A DNA stretch of 64,000 nt from Patescibacteria group bacterium UBA3466 (GCA_002378195.1 DFRJ01000001.1:161722-225721), one strand, 5' to 3'; positions 3,018-29,137 are shown, counted from the first letter of the stretch. Translations and numbers: made by a program. The notes: generated by a model not told the origin, from the sequence alone.

Positions 3018-3110
3018 GCTTCCAACACAAATATAGCTTAAGATGTCAGTTCGTTTACAGGTGTAAACGGTTCGAAAGTCTCCCAGACTTTCTCACTTCC
3101 ACCAACTTCG
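3018..3110 (+). pseudogene. Degenerate inverted tRNA-Val-like fragment
   Basis: The plus strand carries CAGTTCGTTTACA, identical to the tRNA-Val anticodon arm. GGTTCGAAAGTCTCCC resembles the T-arm and TCGTCGCGC the acceptor end. No intact D-arm or acceptor pairing. Confidence 0.35.
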
Positions 3111-3443
3111 TCGCGCTTAAATATTTGGTTGTAGGGGATATCCTACCGAATTTTTCAAAAAAAACAATAGGCTACTTTTAAAATAGTTAGAGCTCGCAAC
3201 TTGTGCGAGCTCGTACCCCTTCACCGTTTTGCCATCTGAATCTGAAATGGCAGATTAAAATAACGGGGTGGTTGAAATTTGGGTAGGTGACGTTTCCGAT
3301 TTTTGTTCGGAGACGGCCGACTTTCTGGTTCACCACCACGGTTATAGGTCCGGTGCTTATTTGCCAAATGAACTTCTCCTTGTTAGTGTGCCTATTTACT
3401 TTATAGACCGGTGTAGGGTCTGACGCAAGTTAACAGGTGTGAA

Positions 3444-3803: not shown

Positions 3804-3925
3804 ATATTACTTCCTTTTGTTGACCAGAGGGTTGTTGTAGAACTACTTCACCAGCAACAATATAATAATATTTATATATGTCAAATATGTTGGTTTAGTG
3901 TTGGGCACAAGGTATACTGTCACGC

Positions 3926-4198
3926 ATGATCGAAATGCTAGCAGTCGTGACTGGTAAAGTGCAGAAAGTAGCCTACCGAGCTTATACCCAAGAATCGGCG
4001 ACCGAGTTAGGGATAGTAGGTAGTGTGCAAAATATGTCCAATGGCACAGTACAAGTAGTGGCTCAGGCTGAGCCTGATGTCTTGAAAGAGTTTGTGGAAT
4101 ACTTAAATGAAGGGTCACTAATGTCAGAAGTGGAAGGGGTGTCGGTCGAATGGCGCAGTGTATCCAAAACTTACGACGAATTTTCTTTGTTGCATTAA
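3926..4198 (+). CDS. acyP: Acylphosphatase
   Basis: 90 aa; GKVQKVAYRAYTQ...GIVGSVQNMSNGTVQVVAQ matches the acylphosphatase signature VQGVxFR...GWVRNxxDGxVE. Confidence 0.75.
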   Translation: MIEMLAVVTGKVQKVAYRAYTQESATELGIVGSVQNMSNGTVQVVAQAEPDVLKEFVEYLNEGSLMSEVEGVSVEWRSVSKTYDEFSLLH

Positions 4199-4201
4199 AA
4201 T

Positions 4202-4882
4202 ATGAACAAAACTTCAATCCAGTGCCTTGGCTTTATTATGGACGGCAATCGCCGTTGGGCGAAAGAAAAAAACCTGCCTACTTTAGAGGGTCATCGTAAG
4301 GGGCACGAGGTGTTCCTTGACTGCGTTCGCTTTGTTAGAGATCAGCATATCCCGCACGCAGTTTTTTATGCCTTTTCTACTGAGAATTGGAATCGTTCAG
4401 AAGAAGAGGTGGCGTATCTCATGCAGTTGTTCGCTCAAGTCATTGAAAATATCAAGAAAGGAGTAGATGAAGAGAGGGTGCGAGTGCGGATAGTTGGTAA
4501 TCGGTCTGACTTTTCAGAAGAACTGCAAACCGCTATGACAGAGTTGGAAGAAGATAGTGCCAAATATACAGAGACTACCATCTGGTTGGCGCTATCATAT
4601 GGAGGCCGAGCCGAAATAATCACGGCCGTTAATCAGGCGGTCGAAAACGGCACTAAAGTGACAGAAACAGATTTTCAAAAATTATTATGGACAGCTGATA
4701 TGCCTGATCCCGACATGATCGTGCGTACCAGCGGCGAACAGAGACTGTCTAATTTTTTGCCCTGGAATTCAGTTTATAGTGAATTCTTGTTTTTAGACAA
4801 ACACTGGCCCGCTTTGACCAAAAGTGATTTCGACGGCATACTCAATGAATATGAATCCAGAGACAGGCGAAAAGGTAAGTAA
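4202..4882 (+). CDS. uppS: Undecaprenyl pyrophosphate synthase (isoprenyl transferase)
   Basis: HLGFIMDGNRRWA near the N-terminus plus the central ENW and C-terminal RTSGEQRLSNFLPW motifs of cis-prenyltransferases. Confidence 0.9.
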   Translation: MNKTSIQCLGFIMDGNRRWAKEKNLPTLEGHRKGHEVFLDCVRFVRDQHIPHAVFYAFSTENWNRSEEEVAYLMQLFAQVIENIKKGVDEERVRVRIVGNRSDFSEELQTAMTELEEDSAKYTETTIWLALSYGGRAEIITAVNQAVENGTKVTETDFQKLLWTADMPDPDMIVRTSGEQRLSNFLPWNSVYSEFLFLDKHWPALTKSDFDGILNEYESRDRRKGK

Positions 4883-6375: not shown

Positions 6376-6410
6376 TAAAAAGCCGGCGCCCTACGGGCGC
6401 CGGCTTTTTA
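6376..6410 (+). terminator. Rho-independent terminator (GC-clamp family: aaaaagccggcgccc-tac-gggcgccggcttttt)
   Basis: Perfect 12-bp GC stem followed by a T-run, immediately after rplS. Confidence 0.8.
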
Positions 6411-6463: not shown

Positions 6464-6548
6464 GTCTACGTGGCGGAATTGGTAGACGCGCTACCTTGAG
6501 GGGGTAGTGAGCATTATGCTCGTGCTGGTTCAACTCCAGTCGTAGACA
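6464..6548 (+). tRNA. tRNA-Leu (anticodon GAG), class II with long variable arm
   Basis: GTCTACG-TG-GCGGAATTGGTAGACGCG-CTACC-TTGAGGG-GGTAG-TGAGCATTATGCTCG-TGCTGGTTCAACTCCAGT-CGTAGAC-A gives the expected acceptor, D, anticodon (TTGAGGG) and T arms plus a long variable arm. Confidence 0.85.
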
Positions 6549-6589
6549 CAAATTAAGACGCCTTCGGGCGTTTTTAATTTGTGTCTACG
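6541..6589 (+). terminator. Long hairpin/terminator after tRNA-Leu. A 16-bp outer stem includes the tRNA 3' acceptor strand, around an inner gacgcc-ttcg-ggcgtt stem plus T-run.
   Basis: cgtagacacaaattaa...ttaatttgtgtctacg inverted repeat enclosing acgccttcgggcgttttt. Confidence 0.6.
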
Positions 6590-6795
6590 AAGAAAGCAAA
6601 CTGCTTTGCTTTCGTCTGGAGTTAAAAGACGGAACGATGTGAGTGTGCGAACAAGTGAGTCGGGGTCGAAAGCACTTGGTAGATTTGTTGCGAAGCAATA
6701 AATATACTTAGTGACTTGTGGCCAACGTAGGGAGTAGACATACAAATTAAACGAGGCGATATCTCCGATATCGCCTCGTTTGCTATACTACCGAC

Positions 6796-21571: not shown

Positions 21572-21604
21572 GAAAGACGGCGCCCTGCGGGCGCCGTCTT
21601 TCTA
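21572..21604 (+). terminator. Rho-independent terminator (GC-clamp family variant: gaaagacggcgccc-tgc-gggcgccgtctttc)
   Basis: Perfect GC-rich stem after nrdA. Confidence 0.75.
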
Positions 21605-23556: not shown

Positions 23557-23590
23557 AAAAAGCCGGCGCCCGAAGGGCGCCGGCTCTTTA
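23557..23590 (+). terminator. Rho-independent terminator (GC-clamp family: aaaaagccggcgccc-gaa-gggcgccggctcttt)
   Basis: Same stem sequence as the terminators at 6376, 24526 and 25436. Confidence 0.8.
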
Positions 23591-24472: not shown

Positions 24473-24525
24473 GCAGCGAGCTGCTAAAAAGGTCTAAATT
24501 GGCGAATAACTTTGTCGCTACGATA

Positions 24526-24556
24526 AAAAGCCGGCGCCCTTCGGGCGCCGGCTTTG
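24526..24556 (+). terminator. Rho-independent terminator (GC-clamp family: aaaaagccggcgccc-ttc-gggcgccggctttg)
   Basis: Identical stem to the 25436 terminator. Confidence 0.75.
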
Positions 24557-24993: not shown

Positions 24994-25419
24994 ATGGCAA
25001 AAGAATTAATCAATCAAGTAAAAGTACAAGCGATCGGTGGTAAAGCTACGCCAGCTCCACCACTTGGTCCGGTACTAGGACAAGCTGGAATCAACATCGG
25101 TGAATTCGTAAACCAATTCAACGAACAAACCCGTGAACGAATGGGGGAGGTGGTACCAGTGGTGATCAATGTTTACGATGACCGAAGTTTCGACTTTATC
25201 GTAAAGGTGTCACCAATGTCACGCTTGATTCTAAAAAAGATCAACAAGCCTAAAGGATCAGGTAAGAATCTTGTATCAAAAGCTGGAACTATCACTAAGG
25301 CTCAGGTACGAGAAGTAGCAGAAGAAAAGATGCCAGATCTGAACGCAGCTTCAATCGAAGCAGCGATGAAGATCGTAGAAGGATCTTGCTACTCAATGGG
25401 TATTGAGGTAACTGATTAG
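24994..25419 (+). CDS. rplK: Ribosomal protein L11
   Basis: MAKELINQVKVQAIGGKATPAPPLGPVLGQAGINIGEFV is canonical L11. Confidence 0.95.
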   Translation: MAKELINQVKVQAIGGKATPAPPLGPVLGQAGINIGEFVNQFNEQTRERMGEVVPVVINVYDDRSFDFIVKVSPMSRLILKKINKPKGSGKNLVSKAGTITKAQVREVAEEKMPDLNAASIEAAMKIVEGSCYSMGIEVTD

Positions 25420-25435
25420 GTACCAATATTGATGA

Positions 25436-25468
25436 AAAAGCCGGCGCCCTTCGGGCGCCGGCTTTTTG
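25436..25468 (+). terminator. Rho-independent terminator (GC-clamp family: gaaaaagccggcgccc-ttc-gggcgccggctttttg)
   Basis: Follows rplK directly; no rplA follows. Confidence 0.8.
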
Positions 25469-25496
25469 TATGCAAGATTAATATTTTTACCTTCCT

Positions 25497-25560
25497 CAAG
25501 ACTCACTCCAGCAGCTGCGGAGGTTAGGTCTGTATAAACCCAATCAGCCCATATCCTTCG
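25497..25560. repeat. Copy A: short remnant of the 3'-end segment of the 26476-28584 gene, upstream of the first MENNK gene
   Basis: gcggaggtt...ctgtataaacccaatcagcc resembles 26768-26790 and 26085-26125. Confidence 0.5.
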
Positions 25561-25575
25561 TTGTAGAATATAAAT

Positions 25576-25923
25576 ATGGAAAACAACAAAATTTACAACA
25601 ATAAAAAAGTATTAGTTATCTCTTGCATCCCAGCATTAGCAATGTCTAGTGTGTTGTACAAATTTTTTGTGTTCCCTTTTGTATGGGGATTGTCTTATAG
25701 TGTTTATTGGGTGTCTGAGCTATATATGTTTTTGCTCTTACCGCTATTGCCAATATTTTTTGTATTTTTAATAGCTAAATCAAAATGGTTTAGAGTCTTT
25801 TCTAATAATGATCATTCAGGTCATAAAGTGATCTCATTAGTAACTCTGCCGACCGTCAGTAGTATCCTGTCTTTCTTAGTAATGATGTTGGGAGTTTATA
25901 TAATTGATGTGGTTTTTTCCTAA
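25576..25923 (+). CDS. Small multi-TM membrane protein (MENNK-start family, copy A)
   Basis: 115 aa, begins MENNK, 3-4 TM helices; paralogous context to 26148-26516. Confidence 0.5.
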   Translation: MENNKIYNNKKVLVISCIPALAMSSVLYKFFVFPFVWGLSYSVYWVSELYMFLLLPLLPIFFVFLIAKSKWFRVFSNNDHSGHKVISLVTLPTVSSILSFLVMMLGVYIIDVVFS

Positions 25924-25951
25924 CCACCGCTGTATTCTGAACGCTCTTCTT

Positions 25952-26135
25952 ATAAGCTCATTTTAATTTCTGCAATTAGGTCACGGCTGGTTTTGTATCC
26001 TCTGGGGAGATTTGATCTCTACGCTCCAGTCTTTTTATTATTGTCTTTAATGACCGCTTTTAGTTCAGCGAATAATTCTTCTGTAGTCGGCGGTTCCGCT
26101 ACTGTATAAACTCAATCAGGCAGCATCATTTGTTT
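25952..26135. repeat. Copy B: partial duplicate (with ~130-nt internal deletion) of the last ~300 nt of the 26476-28584 gene
   Basis: ataagctcattttaatttctgcaattaggtcacggctggtttt-tatcctctggggagatttgatctctacg is near-identical to 26512-26582; a second block matches 26715-26790. Confidence 0.7.
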
Positions 26136-26147
26136 TAGAATAGAAAC

Positions 26148-26516
26148 ATGGAAAATAACAAACTATCAATTATTTACACTAGAAAATTTTGGCTGAGTCT
26201 AATCGTAATTCAAGCATTAACAAATTTAATATTATTGAACATCTTGTATAACACCTCAGATACAGTTTTTGAATACTTATATGCAACTTTGCTGATTTTG
26301 GGGGCTGCTACACCGGCACTAGTTATTTATCCAATATTAGGTGATGGGATAGTTATAGATCTTATAAATTCTCTGGTTTTCGTAGTATTTGCTTTCTACG
26401 TATTTCGAAATGTCGTGAGACCGCGAGGAAAGATTAAAATTCTAATACCGCTTTCATTCGTTACTGTTTCACTAATCAGTTTAATTTTTGGTGCTGTGGT
26501 GATAAGCTCATTTTAA
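26148..26516 (+). CDS. Small multi-TM membrane protein (MENNK-start family, copy B)
   Basis: 122 aa, begins MENNK; its 3' end overlaps convergently with the stop of the 26476-28584 gene. Confidence 0.5.
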   Translation: MENNKLSIIYTRKFWLSLIVIQALTNLILLNILYNTSDTVFEYLYATLLILGAATPALVIYPILGDGIVIDLINSLVFVVFAFYVFRNVVRPRGKIKILIPLSFVTVSLISLIFGAVVISSF

Positions 26517-28584
26517 TTTCTGCAATTAAGTCACGGCTGGTTTGCGCATCCTCTGGGGAGATTTGATCTCTACGTTCTAATCTTTCGATCATCCTATCTA
26601 TTCGTCGTAGTAAAAATTTTGCTGTCCGGTCGGAGATTCGGGTATTCTTTAGTGACATTTTTTCAGCCAACTTGATCCTTAGCAGCAAGCGCTTTTCGTT
26701 GTGGCGGCTTAAGTCGCTGTCTTTTATTGCAGCTTTTAGTGCAGCAAACAATTCTTCCGTGGTCGGAGGTTCTTCTGCGGTATAAAGTCCTAGTCCGTAG
26801 CGAGAGAAGGTGGTGTTGGTAAAGGTGACGGTGCTTTCTGCTACGTTTACATTACTGTCTAATTTTGGTTCCCAGGTTGCTGTCTCAGGATTAAAGTAGA
26901 AAACAATCAGTTCTTCCGCATTACCTCCTAGTTCTGTTATCAGTTCTGGTTCATAAGCAAAGGTTACATCGACTGAGAAAGTGTCATTTTCGAGCGATGA
27001 TTCCAGATCCCAGAAGATAGGTAGCATTTTGGTACCGTCTGGTATCAGACCTTCAGTGACGGGTTCTTGATAGGGAGTGATGTTGAAGGTGGTGCCAGCT
27101 GGTAGAGGAGAGGTAAATTGCATCTCAATGTCAGACTTGGGGAAGGAGATGTAATCAGTTTCTTCCGTTAGTTCTAATTGCGAAATGGTATCGATCCCGG
27201 CCCAGGCCACAGGATTTAAGAAACGAGTTGTGCCACCGACGTTGAGGAAGCCAGGTCCTCGAGGTCCATCACCACCCGGTGTGAGCGTTAAATCAGATCC
27301 CCACTTACCGCTAAAATTTAAAAAGATTTGATCGATGCTAGATAGTTTATTTAAACTATCTAGAGTTACACCAGAATTAGAAGTTATATCTGTGCCAACA
27401 CCAGTATTAATACTTTTTACATAAGGATAATTCGCGTGTGATCCTAATGACACATAGCTCACTAGCCGTTCAGCATCTTTAGTTACTTCTTCGCTATCCC
27501 AAGCCCTTCTCACAGAGTCGTAGGTTTTGGGATCAAAGTCTTCCGCATCCCCATTATTATGATGAGCTGAATAAGCCACATATTCAGGCTCCTCAGTTTC
27601 GGCGTCCAAGAAAATAAAGACTGATTCAAAATCACCTTCGTGGTTGTTAAAGCCTCCTTGTTCAGCCCAATTATTCATCGCGTAAAACTGCCAGTATTGC
27701 AGGACGATATAGTCTTTGTCGGCCGTGGAGTCAGTCATGCGGTGGGCGTAGACGGTCACATTTTCAGGGTCGGGGGTGCCGTACTTGGTGCGGGCCGCAT
27801 CGAGATCGATTGAAGCTGGGTTGTTCGGGTCGCTGTAGGCGAGGTAGTAATCTTCAGTATTATTTTGCTCTACTATCTGTGCAAAGGTGGCTGGAGTCAG
27901 ACTTTCTTCATTGAGGACAATTTCATCTACCAACTCTCCATCCCAGAGAGCGCTATCAGTAATAAACTCTTCCATGCTCATCGGGAAGTAGTCTTCATCA
28001 GGGTGCATTCGCAATATCGGTGCGTACTCTAAAAGTAGTGGGTCAATTTCTTCCTCGTCAGAGGGCGCTACCACCGTGAAGGTAGTCACGTAAGTGTAGG
28101 TAGGGGGAAATTCTTGAGCGTGAGCAGTCGGGATTAAAAATTCTAGCCATTGGTTGCGTTTTGCTTCCGAAAGGACCATTAGGAATTCATCCATGGTCAC
28201 AAGAGTGTAGGTGCCATAACCGTCGAGAGCTAGTCTAAAATTATTACTACTGTCACGGTAGTCATCTCCGTCGTGCTTATAAATAAAAGAAGAAGCACTG
28301 GTGTTTCTCGGATCACCTACCTCTTCCAAGATAGCCGAGTCTGGATCTTCTACTTCTATCACATCACCGTCATTAATGATGGTGCCGTTAATTTCCAATT
28401 TGATAGCTGGTTCTATATCAGATTTGCCAAAAGGATCCTCACAGTCTTCGATGGGATGTATTTCCTCAAAAAAGTCGATAATGTTGCCGCAGGGTAGATC
28501 GGCGCTGGCTTGATTGGTAAAAGTGAATAGTAATGAAAGGGCGAGCAGGAAAGATAACGCTCTAGCTTTGATTGTGATGGTCAT
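26476..28584 (-). CDS. Secreted protein with Vps62/DUF946-like domain and helical basic C-terminal tail
   Basis: Signal peptide MTITIKARALSFLLALSLLFTFTNQASA; central YVLQYWQFYAMNNW...GGFNNHEGDFESVFIFLD resembles the Vps62 (PF06101) HxGDWE core. The C-terminal 100 aa are K/R-rich helical. Confidence 0.5.
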   Translation of the reverse strand: MTITIKARALSFLLALSLLFTFTNQASADLPCGNIIDFFEEIHPIEDCEDPFGKSDIEPAIKLEINGTIINDGDVIEVEDPDSAILEEVGDPRNTSASSFIYKHDGDDYRDSSNNFRLALDGYGTYTLVTMDEFLMVLSEAKRNQWLEFLIPTAHAQEFPPTYTYVTTFTVVAPSDEEEIDPLLLEYAPILRMHPDEDYFPMSMEEFITDSALWDGELVDEIVLNEESLTPATFAQIVEQNNTEDYYLAYSDPNNPASIDLDAARTKYGTPDPENVTVYAHRMTDSTADKDYIVLQYWQFYAMNNWAEQGGFNNHEGDFESVFIFLDAETEEPEYVAYSAHHNNGDAEDFDPKTYDSVRRAWDSEEVTKDAERLVSYVSLGSHANYPYVKSINTGVGTDITSNSGVTLDSLNKLSSIDQIFLNFSGKWGSDLTLTPGGDGPRGPGFLNVGGTTRFLNPVAWAGIDTISQLELTEETDYISFPKSDIEMQFTSPLPAGTTFNITPYQEPVTEGLIPDGTKMLPIFWDLESSLENDTFSVDVTFAYEPELITELGGNAEELIVFYFNPETATWEPKLDSNVNVAESTVTFTNTTFSRYGLGLYTAEEPPTTEELFAALKAAIKDSDLSRHNEKRLLLRIKLAEKMSLKNTRISDRTAKFLLRRIDRMIERLERRDQISPEDAQTSRDLIAEIKMSLSPQHQKLN

Positions 28585-28624: not shown

Positions 28625-29137
28625 CTAAGATCCTTTTCTTTCGTAATCAATCCATTGGAATTTTATGCCGTTGTGCTCTTGGGGTGCGTGTTCTTTGGTG
28701 ACGGCAAAGTCGGCTGAGAAATCAGGGAAGAAAGTATCTGCTTCTGGTTCGTCTTCGACTAGAGTGAGGTGTAGTCGGTCCACTAAAGGCAGGGCTTCAC
28801 GGTAGAGCATGGCACCGCCGCCGATATGTATTTCGGTGGGGTTTTCTTCTTTCGCGATATTTATTCCATCTTCTAAAGAATGAGCCACCTTGGCACCTGG
28901 CGTAACTTCTTCACCAACTCGAGAGAGAACAATATTGGTCCGCCCCGGCAAAGGCTTGCCCAAAATTTTAATGATAGATTCGTAGGTATTTCGACCCATT
29001 ATGATGGGGTACCCGAGGGTTAATTCTTTGAAATGCTTAAGGTCTTCCGGCAAGTGCCAAAGCAGTTGGTTTTTAAAACCGATCGCGCGGCGCTCTTTAC
29101 TCATGGCCGCAACAATGACTAGTGGTGGTTTATTCAT
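28625..29137 (-). CDS. folA: Dihydrofolate reductase
   Basis: VIVAAMSKERRAIGFKNQLLWHLPEDLKHFKELTLGYPIIMGRNTYESI is canonical DHFR. Confidence 0.9.
   Translation of the reverse strand: MNKPPLVIVAAMSKERRAIGFKNQLLWHLPEDLKHFKELTLGYPIIMGRNTYESIIKILGKPLPGRTNIVLSRVGEEVTPGAKVAHSLEDGINIAKEENPTEIHIGGGAMLYREALPLVDRLHLTLVEDEPEADTFFPDFSADFAVTKEHAPQEHNGIKFQWIDYERKGS

Follow-up and report, generated by a model that had tools for sequence, protein, structure and literature searches.

One intact module and the relic of a second: a convergent gene pair for a secreted protein and its membrane partner in a Patescibacteria genome

In the contact-dependent inhibition (CDI), Rhs and MafB systems, the gene for a full-length secreted protein has behind it a second copy that is cut down to its 3′ end and comes with a small gene of its own. 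The immunity gene of these systems lies directly downstream, on the same strand, and is co-transcribed with the gene for the secreted protein. The pore-forming colicins are accompanied by a small immunity protein with 3–4 transmembrane (TM) helices, the gene for which is downstream, convergent and under its own promoter. Colicin operons of this type, with their immunity genes on the opposite strand, are reportedly treated in Colicin Biology by Cascales and colleagues, from 2007. Examples in which the genes for CdiA, Rhs and MafB have orphan modules behind them, each with a C-terminal toxin part and its immunity gene, have been published (Poole et al. 2011, PMC3150448; Koskiniemi et al. 2014, PMC3967940). 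For type VII secretion systems (T7SS), Garrett et al. 2022 (PMC9484751) present esaG and tipC as tandem, non-identical immunity genes that evolve by recombination between conserved blocks; the tipC genes are highly similar in blocks at the 5′ end and at the 3′ end, with the variable parts in between, and block recombination is offered there as the explanation for esaG/tipC copy loss and expansion between close strains. Here we describe a locus to be set beside these systems, found in 64,000 nt of DNA from Patescibacteria group bacterium UBA3466 (GCA_002378195.1 DFRJ01000001.1:161722-225721), a marine ultra-small bacterium of the candidate phyla radiation (CPR) type. This whole stretch is referred to as the window, and window coordinates are counted from its first letter. 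The locus consists of the gene for a large secreted protein, BIG, and two small membrane open reading frames (ORFs), MENNK-A and MENNK-B, arranged in a tandem repeat.

The window holds one intact module, made up of BIG and MENNK-B, and the remnant of a second, made up of MENNK-A and T′, a relic of the tail of another BIG gene. By analogy with toxin/immunity arrays, we consider it rather probable that the locus is of the polymorphic effector/partner kind, that it carries an orphan cassette and that it works as those arrays do. It would represent a decayed two-module array of a gene pair spread throughout the Patescibacteria (CPR), in which a Sec-secreted BIG is matched with a convergent multi-TM partner of ~120 aa. 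The BIG copy of the second module would have been functional for a long time and then reduced to its last ~100 codons, probably by deletion between short repeats (R); its remnant T′ would later have gained a 125-nt deletion and frameshifts, with the partner MENNK-A surviving as an orphan. In relatives, homologous recombination at the partner 5′ end/promoter and at the BIG tail core expands, contracts and reshuffles such arrays and moves cassettes between strains.

The repeat is composed of two tandem units, unit 1 at 25530–26113 and unit 2 at 26102–26789, each laid out as R (a repeat of 10–12 nt), U (34 nt), a small membrane ORF and T (the 3′ tail of the minus-strand BIG gene). Direct-repeat detection in the window gave four collinear blocks, pairing 25943–25993 with 26493–26543 (90% identity), 25997–26041 with 26548–26592 (87%), 26042–26113 with 26718–26789 (79%) and 25530–25590 with 26102–26162 (82%). 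When the repeat region was compared with the whole window by blastn, matches at E = 6.5e-28, 1.3e-11 and 4.4e-11 were obtained, with no additional repeat copies elsewhere in the 64 kb. An earlier reading made from the sequence only, referred to below as the sequence-only reading, had described a tandem cassette-like structure with flanks copied from the 3′ end of BIG. This description holds, with the addition that the small gene's own 5′ region contributes to the repeat. The flanks had been put at >85% identity; they are indeed similar, at ~84% overall (142/168 aligned nt), but not uniformly above 85%, and the blocks, at 79–90%, all stay above the ~70% that had been named as the level below which the proposal would fall. 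Unit 1 lacks 125 nt whose counterpart in unit 2 is 26593–26717, together with one further base, so that the deletion of ~130 nt reported previously is present and has an exact size of 125 nt.

Three copies of the short repeat delimit the units. R1 (25530–25541, plus strand; CTGTATAAACCC) forms the left edge of unit 1; R2 (26102–26113, plus; CTGTATAAACTC), at the junction of T′ and U2, is homologous to both 25530–25541 and 26778–26789; and R3 (26778–26789, plus; CGGTATAAAGTC) lies inside BIG at codons ~599–602 (GLYT), where the homology of BIG to T′ stops. Three copies of the larger segment had also been claimed, the third as a remnant at 25497–25560. We find two units and no third tail copy: the supposed remnant is actually 25530–25590, the left end of unit 1, where the repeat is followed by U1 and by codons 1–5 of MENNK-A. 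A third tail copy at 25497–25529 was rejected, the similarity of 25468–25529 to T and T′ being at shuffle level. Local alignment of 25468–25545 with 26030–26118 recovered only CTGTATAAAC.CAATC, and 2/2000 shuffles scored as high.

The upstream regions of the two small genes, U1 (25542–25575, plus strand, ahead of MENNK-A) and U2 (26114–26147, plus, ahead of MENNK-B), are 82% identical as part of the 25530–25590 block. Both contain the hexamer TAGAAT, a conserved −10-like box, at 25564–25569 and 26136–26141 respectively, 6 nt before the ATG in both cassettes, and a Shine-Dalgarno sequence is absent ahead of MENNK-A and MENNK-B. On these sequence features, U is predicted to be a promoter for a leaderless mRNA, one per cassette. 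Given such independently promoted leaderless mRNAs, U plus the first codons would form a functional unit.

T (26493–26789, minus strand), which encodes residues ~600–702 and a helical bundle, is the functional BIG tail and the template of the repeat. Its counterpart T′ (25943–26113, minus) is what is left, as a pseudogene, of the final ~100 codons of a second BIG copy. It is 79–90% identical to 26493–26789, carries the 125-nt internal deletion and two frame changes, and has kept the ancestral TAA stop; its minus-strand translation runs through three frames (VYTVAEPPTTEELFAELKAVIKD.., KRLERRDQISPED.., TSRDLIAEIKMSL*). Among the mismatches between T and T′ in the BIG frame (n = 26), 15 are synonymous and 11 non-synonymous. 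This is a synonymous share of 58%, against 21% expected from random change (p = 6e-5), and it rises to 68% without the 4 changes beyond the ancestral stop; by rough arithmetic, ~32% would be expected of a T′ fragment that had never been coding. Rough arithmetic from the mismatch counts also gives dS of ~0.5–0.6 and dN of ~0.09, and the two tails are 84% identical in amino acids. The synonymous excess therefore argues that T′ was once under coding constraint, and we infer from the sequence comparison that it comes from a BIG copy that was constrained for most of the divergence and truncated only recently. The BIG stop itself has shifted: T′ keeps ...IKMSL-TAA, whereas BIG has TCA at this position and extends by 8 codons (SPQHQKLN). 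This extension accounts for the 41-nt overlap with MENNK-B (26476–26516). The possibility that T or T′ acts as a structured RNA, terminator or 3′ untranslated region was rejected: read as plus-strand structured RNA they show no excess stability (z = +1.4 and −0.4), no Rfam family was found in the repeat region, and terminator-like matches are weak. Inverted repeats in the region comprise only a terminator hairpin and matches of chance size.

These results change the terms of the problem as first posed. The sequence-only reading had called the flanks non-coding and had seen in their conservation, beside diverged proteins, the reverse of neutral divergence. However, T′ is a former coding sequence and U is promoter-like, so that the flanks, as former coding sequence and as promoter and start region, were never neutral. 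What survives of the paradox, which was overstated given the past constraint on T′, is that MENNK-A and MENNK-B cannot be aligned beside tails that are 84% identical. The comparison of the window with L017, a related locus, gives a scale for this: BIG is 49% identical between the two, the tails only 9–40%, and the partners 38%. A partner lying beside tails with 84% identity should therefore align easily, and because MENNK-A and MENNK-B do not, their bodies have a history apart from that of the flanks.

The repeat layout also admits a rather unlikely alternative, in which a segment consisting of U, a partner gene and the last 100 BIG codons was duplicated via the ~10-nt R, the tail copy being born dead, and one body was then replaced by unrelated DNA through recombination in the flanks. 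The latter step corresponds to the cassette exchange proposed in the sequence-only reading. Three R copies flanking two units are a classic signature of repeat-mediated duplication, homology links the T′-U2 junction with what lies to the left of U1, the variable segments of the two units are alike in length (352 and 330 nt), and the similarity of the two bodies is at chance, all as this scenario would have it. R-mediated deletion inside a full second module would yield the R layout equally well, however, and the share of synonymous mismatches between T and T′, at 58% or 68% without the 4 post-stop changes, speaks against the ~32% that a born-dead tail predicts. In addition, a donor of the MENNK-A body was not found in protein sets of 5.8 G and 1.84 G.

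The two ORFs beginning with MENNK, at 25576–25923 and 26148–26516, are confirmed. MENNK-A (plus strand) is a hydrophobic ORF of 115 aa in the distal, orphan cassette slot, and MENNK-B (plus) is a multi-TM protein of 122 aa that is the convergent partner of BIG and, as already noticed in the sequence-only reading, overlaps its stop, by 41 nt. That reading was also right that the two proteins are alike only in their first five residues, since BLASTP finds the MENNK start alone. The bodies are at chance both in DNA (z = −0.4 to −1.2 against shuffles) and in protein (1445/2000 shuffles score at least as high), and dN/dS of A against B is incomputable because nothing aligns. Nor was homology of the two along their length, the outcome that would have reduced them to ordinary paralogues, found in profile comparisons. 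MENNK-B scores 46.7 bits (E 1.7e-16) against a leave-one-out hidden Markov model (HMM) of the partner family, a score that 0/300 shuffles reach, whereas MENNK-A scores −5.0 bits against the same model, with 292/300 of its own shuffles at least as high, and hhalign gives it a probability of 0.2% against the family. Neither the family profile nor the N-terminal motif P(W/F)Y(K/R)xR(K/R)FW is matched by MENNK-A, which shares with MENNK-B only position, predicted promoter, the first 5 codons and gross hydrophobic layout. MENNK-A as a frameshifted or antisense partner gene was considered and rejected, as the profile is unmatched in any reading frame of 25430–26160, a stretch that takes in unit 1, and tblastn and blastn searches against the window were empty. 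Composition was uninformative as to a foreign origin of MENNK-A, both genes having ~32% GC and similar codon adaptation.

Searches for relatives of MENNK-A returned no homologue in 5.8 G clusters (word-index search) or in 1.84 G representatives (full phmmer), making it an ORFan, and its Pfam matches are insignificant (holin Dp-1, E 0.43; DUF6542, E 0.08). The word-index search is blind to the partner family, MENNK-B as query having found only itself, and the family was therefore recovered through synteny and a purpose-built HMM. The lack of homologues, and of any family or structure match, together with the clearly pseudogenic state of the neighbouring T′, would fit a non-functional MENNK-A, in which unit 1 is a decaying leftover and the open frame a remnant or a T-rich accident; the identity of all contigs means that there is no variation for a test of selection. 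We regard this as quite unlikely. The frame stays open for 115 codons from the conserved ATG, which 0/5000 dinucleotide shuffles do, and the other five frames contain 6–13 stops. With a T content of 0.50 at second codon positions, as in MENNK-B, its composition by codon position is the one found in membrane proteins. The box that resembles a promoter has been kept, as has its spacing, and the layout of charge and hydrophobicity parallels that of MENNK-B, with a basic N terminus, a hydrophobic block, a basic loop and a last TM or hydrophobic segment. By these features of its sequence, MENNK-A is coding-like.

The pairing of BIG with a small membrane protein is not peculiar to the window. Loci were drawn from species-representative genomes and metagenomes and counted if at least 400 nt were available downstream, giving 34 distinct loci; a convergent multi-TM partner stands beside the BIG homologue in 30/34 of these Patescibacteria loci. 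The partner ORFs encode ~106–150 aa, and the stop-to-stop distance between BIG homologue and partner ranges from −57 to +93 nt. A leave-one-locus-out HMM finds every syntenic partner, at 8–97 bits, with 0/300 shuffles reaching the real score. The window pair fits this module, MENNK-B being convergent with BIG, overlapping it by 41 nt and matching the profile. A TAnnnT box is found 6–9 nt before the ATG in 20/27 partner genes of the other loci, and lineages with a different, beta-type BIG tail still keep the partner. The partner family is without a Pfam, NCBIfam, PADLOC or PDB relative; a profile search against the PDB gave just ORM1, at E 0.12, which was not used.

The partner outpaces BIG in divergence (38% against 49% identity, window against L017). 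The partner of L017 had to be reconstructed before it could be compared with MENNK-B, to which it is 38% identical: at 4127–4382 the contig end folds back as an inverted duplication, which splits the partner into a 47-aa ORF and an inverted N-terminal half. Two further arrangements were observed. In a Gracilibacteria metagenome-assembled genome (MAG; L031, 1163–1954), a BIG homologue of 1483 aa has two genes of the partner family on its upstream side, in divergent orientation, where other loci have them downstream and convergent. In L106/L107 (1768–3026), a paralogue of ~300 aa consists of the BIG signal peptide and N-terminal domain only; it has 66% nucleotide identity with a synonymous excess, and, with a convergent partner gene of its own, it lies a short way upstream of the main module.

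Cassette number and identity, to which the sequence-only reading had drawn attention, do vary among the related genomes. Arrays of 2–4 partner genes are found in L025, L038/L119, L107, L108, L109, L116 and L031 (4 copies each in L025 and L116), and copy number and order differ between near-identical strains. The copies within an array share a sharply bounded 5′ block. In L038, codons 1–30 of the partner genes are 93–96% identical in nucleotides, synonymous sites included, and the remainder is ~27% identical in amino acids; in L025, similarity breaks at codon ~17–22. Relics of the BIG tail accompany such copies, as in L107 (6685–6918) and above all in L109, where a 150-nt core of the BIG tail, 93–100% identical, recurs between partner copies and is followed by ~560 nt at ~50% and then by the partner 5′ end and upstream region at 87–100%. 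Of the L109 tail relics, one is frameshifted and one still open.

Comparison of close strains gives direct evidence of exchange. L126 and L116 are 99.6% identical and have 1 and 4 partner copies, respectively, with the junction falling within the 5′ block that is conserved. Between L116 and L119, the flanks show 98% and 94% identity, and BIG falls from ~100% to ~55% amino acid identity exactly at the FYAMNNW/NNHEGDWE motif; the proximal cassette of L116 is 95.6% identical to the distal cassette of L119. One MAG contains a pair of complete modules, L034 and L035, in which both BIG and partners are mosaic: BIG identity is 53–100% by region, the overall values are 78% for BIG and 55% for the partner, and the partners are 87–100% identical at the N terminus and 20–40% in the middle. 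In three strains, the C-terminal type of BIG co-segregates with the type of the proximal partner. The conserved blocks thus serve as crossover sites in the family, whose polymorphism lies in the C-terminal ~40% of BIG and in the partner's middle portion. The recombination at conserved flanks suggested by the sequence-only reading is directly visible in L126/L116 and L116/L119; the contigs retrieved for the window population, by exact protein match, show no trace of ongoing switching.

Two other accounts of the divergence between MENNK-A and MENNK-B bear on these observations. The first is that they are old paralogues, in which gene conversion periodically homogenizes only U and T/T′ with the functional BIG tail as donor. 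The L109 tail core, 97% identical with knife-edge boundaries beside ~50% sequence, is what such conversion would leave, as are the 5′ blocks of L038 and L025, at 87–96% identity with synonymous positions included, beside bodies at ~27% in amino acids; in the window, T and T′ have exact stretches of 27 nt in common, a length sufficient for exchange of the RecA type. The window flanks, however, are moderately and fairly evenly similar (79–90%) without a near-identical tract, and the deletion, frameshifts and many synonymous differences of T′ mean that no recent conversion is visible. Conversion also leaves the failure of MENNK-A to match the profile unexplained while every other array member passes, and we judge it unlikely. 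The second account, diversifying selection on the duplicated partners without any recombination, draws on the faster evolution of the partner (38% against 49% for BIG in window/L017, 55% against 78% in L034/L035). It is very improbable as an explanation for the separation of MENNK-A from MENNK-B. Similarity of the body DNA is at or below the shuffle mean though the tails differ by only ~16%, the collapse of synonymous-site identity at the block boundary in relatives is something that protein selection cannot bring about, and the changes in copy number and order between strains that are 98–99.6% identical are recombinational. As the sole cause, which the sequence-only reading had allowed for, diversifying selection also fails on rate: partners are still 38% identical where BIG is at 49%, and MENNK-A and MENNK-B are at chance beside tails at 84%.

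Two features of the arrays were noted in passing. In L107, a motif, AACTACACTAGTCAGACT, which contains the palindrome ACTAGT, occurs at 1706–1831, 3087–3202, 3924–3948 and 6534–6649; its seven occurrences are upstream of the partner genes and BIG, and a role as an operator-like repeat is possible. The second is STIEIDPLLLYMY, read in an open frame that lies upstream of the distal partner in L038 (2259–2312) and L116 (6840–6921). It is similar to EIDPLLLQY, a motif of the BIG family, yet is on the partner strand; the likeness may be coincidental, or an inverted fragment of BIG may have left it behind.

Public data allowed the window population to be considered as well. We retrieved 16 public contig stretches, assembled with several assemblers, via exact copies of the MENNK-A or MENNK-B protein (a few of them being one contig fetched twice), and these are 100% identical wherever they overlap 25200–27000. 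An assembly artefact was accordingly rejected as the origin of the repeat. In one MAG (GCA_002320355.1; L014, 412–720) a run of N falls exactly at the tandem repeat, from which it appears that the repeat breaks short-read scaffolding. The 90% clusters of MENNK-A, MENNK-B and BIG have one member each.

BIG (26476–28584, minus strand) is a multidomain protein of 702 aa with a signal peptide at its N terminus, as read from the sequence. An AlphaFold2 model built with 27 homologues has a pLDDT of 81; in it the N-terminal and core domains are rich in beta structure, ~465–600 forms a beta sandwich, and a four-helix bundle occupies the C terminus at 609–699. This bundle, charged and of ~90 aa, coincides exactly with the T segment. 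The homologues of BIG (n = 87) are likewise multidomain, with lengths of 700–1500 aa; all those with an organism name are from Patescibacteria, and the closest is 49% identical. The best PDB match of the model in Foldseek is 3st1, a cytolysin of the Nep1-like protein (NLP) type, at E 1.9e-4, followed by GAIN and ZU5 domains. The same entry is the top sequence-profile match, at the HEGDWE motif, with a non-significant E of 0.27; the window BIG reads NNHEGDFE where the family consensus is NNHEGDWE. The sequence-only reading had called BIG Vps62-like. For the window protein this amounts to a sub-threshold match to Pfam Vps62 (PF06101; E 8.4e-4, 39 residues only), at 18.3 bits against a gathering cut-off of 22.1. 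Because many BIG homologues carry a precomputed PF06101 match, kinship with Vps62 at the level of the family is likely from sequence. No Pfam colicin match was found for BIG.

A short site next to the tail also deserves mention. At BIG residues 592–596 (26797–26811) the Ser is invariant throughout the family and the His-Phe nearly so (HFSRY), just ahead of the last strand of the beta sandwich whose fold matches are GAIN and ZU5; the window BIG and its closest homologue read TFSRY here. These matches, by analogy with HF|S cleavage of the GAIN/ZU5/Nup98 type, suggest a putative self-cleavage site, which would release or tether the helical tail.

How the two proteins would work together can be proposed by analogy. 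BIG, which has an NLP-like core, would act outside the cell as a protein directed at membranes; in the membrane, the proximal partner would serve as the protector or docking protein cognate to BIG, and the distal partners would be orphan specificities retained after the effector copy was lost. By comparison with known pairs, BIG and its partner may have an effector/immunity-like function; the immunity- or receptor-like behaviour that the sequence-only reading proposed for the small proteins is a candidate role. A wider proposal is tentative: that this is an undescribed, CPR-wide polymorphic effector system, in which a Sec-secreted effector with an NLP-like core and a possible GAIN/ZU5-type self-cleavage site (HFSRY) exchanges its C-terminal half together with convergent leaderless multi-TM protectors, orphan cassettes being kept in arrays, the whole serving as a weapon or host-membrane-opening device of epibiotic ultra-small bacteria with provision for self-protection.

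Several points weigh against these proposals. With regard to history, the synonymous excess in T′ is based on just 26 mismatches, and the alternation of R with segments (R-S-R-S-R) is also compatible with a simple partial tandem duplication. The searched collections contain no close relative of the window genome, the nearest BIG being at 49%, and the history of the window array has therefore been inferred from distant lineages. Cassette exchange is not visibly ongoing, every contig retrieved by an exact MENNK-A or MENNK-B match being identical. Of the cassette occupants seen anywhere, MENNK-A alone does not match the family profile, and it could be of different origin or a decaying gene. With regard to function, no secretion system or toxin domain was identified, the 3st1 fold match is weak (TM-score 0.49 on the target, rmsd 8.2 Å), and BIG has no match to Pfam NPP1 (PF05630) at E ≤ 1. 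Also, the partner is convergent and not co-transcribed as in classical toxin/immunity pairs.

In the window, the module lies between rplK (24994–25419), which has no rplA after it, and folA (28625–29137), and in L018 (8798–9674) a homologous module adjoins rplJ-rplL. The rplK-side position in the window and the rplJ-rplL neighbour in L018 together suggest an old association of the module with the ribosomal-protein cluster. A near-identical, GC-rich palindromic hairpin, AAAAAGCCGGCGCCCTTCGGGCGCCGGCTTTTT, occurs five times in the window, at 6377–6409, 21573–21601, 23557–23589, 24525–24555 and 25435–25467. The copy at 24525 scores as an intrinsic terminator; that at 25435 begins 16 nt past the rplK stop, and several public contigs begin at it (25435–25467). 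From its sequence the hairpin resembles either a REP-like element or a shared terminator that acts in both directions.

The local feature of the window is a relic, and the interest lies in the undescribed, conserved and polymorphic two-gene module to which it belongs. How CPR/Patescibacteria attack, attach to or tap host cells is largely obscure, and literature searches returned no paper tying Vps62 to Patescibacteria. The pair is conserved across many CPR classes, and strain polymorphism, orphan cassettes and recombination blocks are genomic hallmarks of conflict systems; these make it a candidate host- or competitor-directed membrane effector with cognate protection. There are consequences for annotation too. 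Hundreds of 'hypothetical' membrane ORFs of ~120 aa beside these large genes now fall into one family, the 3′ tail fragments between partner genes are to be recorded as relics and not as genes, and ORFans such as MENNK-A can emerge in cassette slots.

The locus is not assigned to any of the systems with which it is compared. Among described systems, those that shuffle cassettes by dedicated enzymes find no counterpart here: no integrase, reverse transcriptase or recombinase of the kind expected of an integron, diversity-generating retroelement or shufflon is present among the called neighbours rplK, folA, CYTH, dcd and thyA. The likeness to NLP (Nep1-like, PF05630) proteins consists of the 3st1 fold match and of the alignment of NNHEGDWE to the GHRHDWE region, at E 0.27 only; unlike NLP and Vps62 proteins, BIG belongs to a multidomain family of 700–1500 aa, falls below the Vps62 threshold and is without an NPP1 match. 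With the pore-forming colicins the locus shares a topology only, namely a gene for a small membrane protein directly downstream of, and convergent to, that for a large exported protein, with a promoter of its own, which at this locus is predicted. BIG is without the colicin pore domain of 10 helices (~200 aa, with a hydrophobic hairpin) and ends instead in its charged four-helix bundle of ~90 aa. The locus is chromosomal and has no lysis gene, and no sequence or profile similarity to colicins was found.

The resemblance to the CDI, Rhs and MafB systems extends to three features. A truncated tail is found with its own small gene (T′ and MENNK-A, and also in L109 and L107), in relatives of the window the conserved N-terminal and divergent C-terminal parts of BIG meet at a sharp motif break (L116/L119), and the resident partner of one strain is the distal orphan of another (again L116/L119). 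The relic here is, however, the conserved extreme tail and not a variable toxin tip behind a conserved linker, and the C-terminal variants of BIG are diverged alleles (~55%) of the same domains and do not represent toxin domains of separate origin. The partner gene is encoded on the other strand, behind a promoter-like box that belongs to it alone, and export would be by a Sec signal peptide, no T5SS, T6SS or T7SS (type V, VI or VII secretion system) context being seen.

The T7SS immunity-gene arrays differ from the present system in that the protein families are unrelated, no T7SS is present, and the partners are multi-TM proteins, convergent, with predicted promoters of their own. Also, part of the repeat is a relic of BIG's own tail, and the second cassette of the window lies outside the family. 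In both cases, strings of non-identical small paralogues stand beside a polymorphic secreted protein, as seen in the relatives of the window. The relatives have 5′ blocks and tail relics, and a junction between 1 and 4 copies that falls inside such a block; the window has the blocks, in contigs that are all identical. By this comparison, the closest behaviour so far described is that of esaG and tipC, with tandem immunity genes gained and lost by recombination between conserved blocks.

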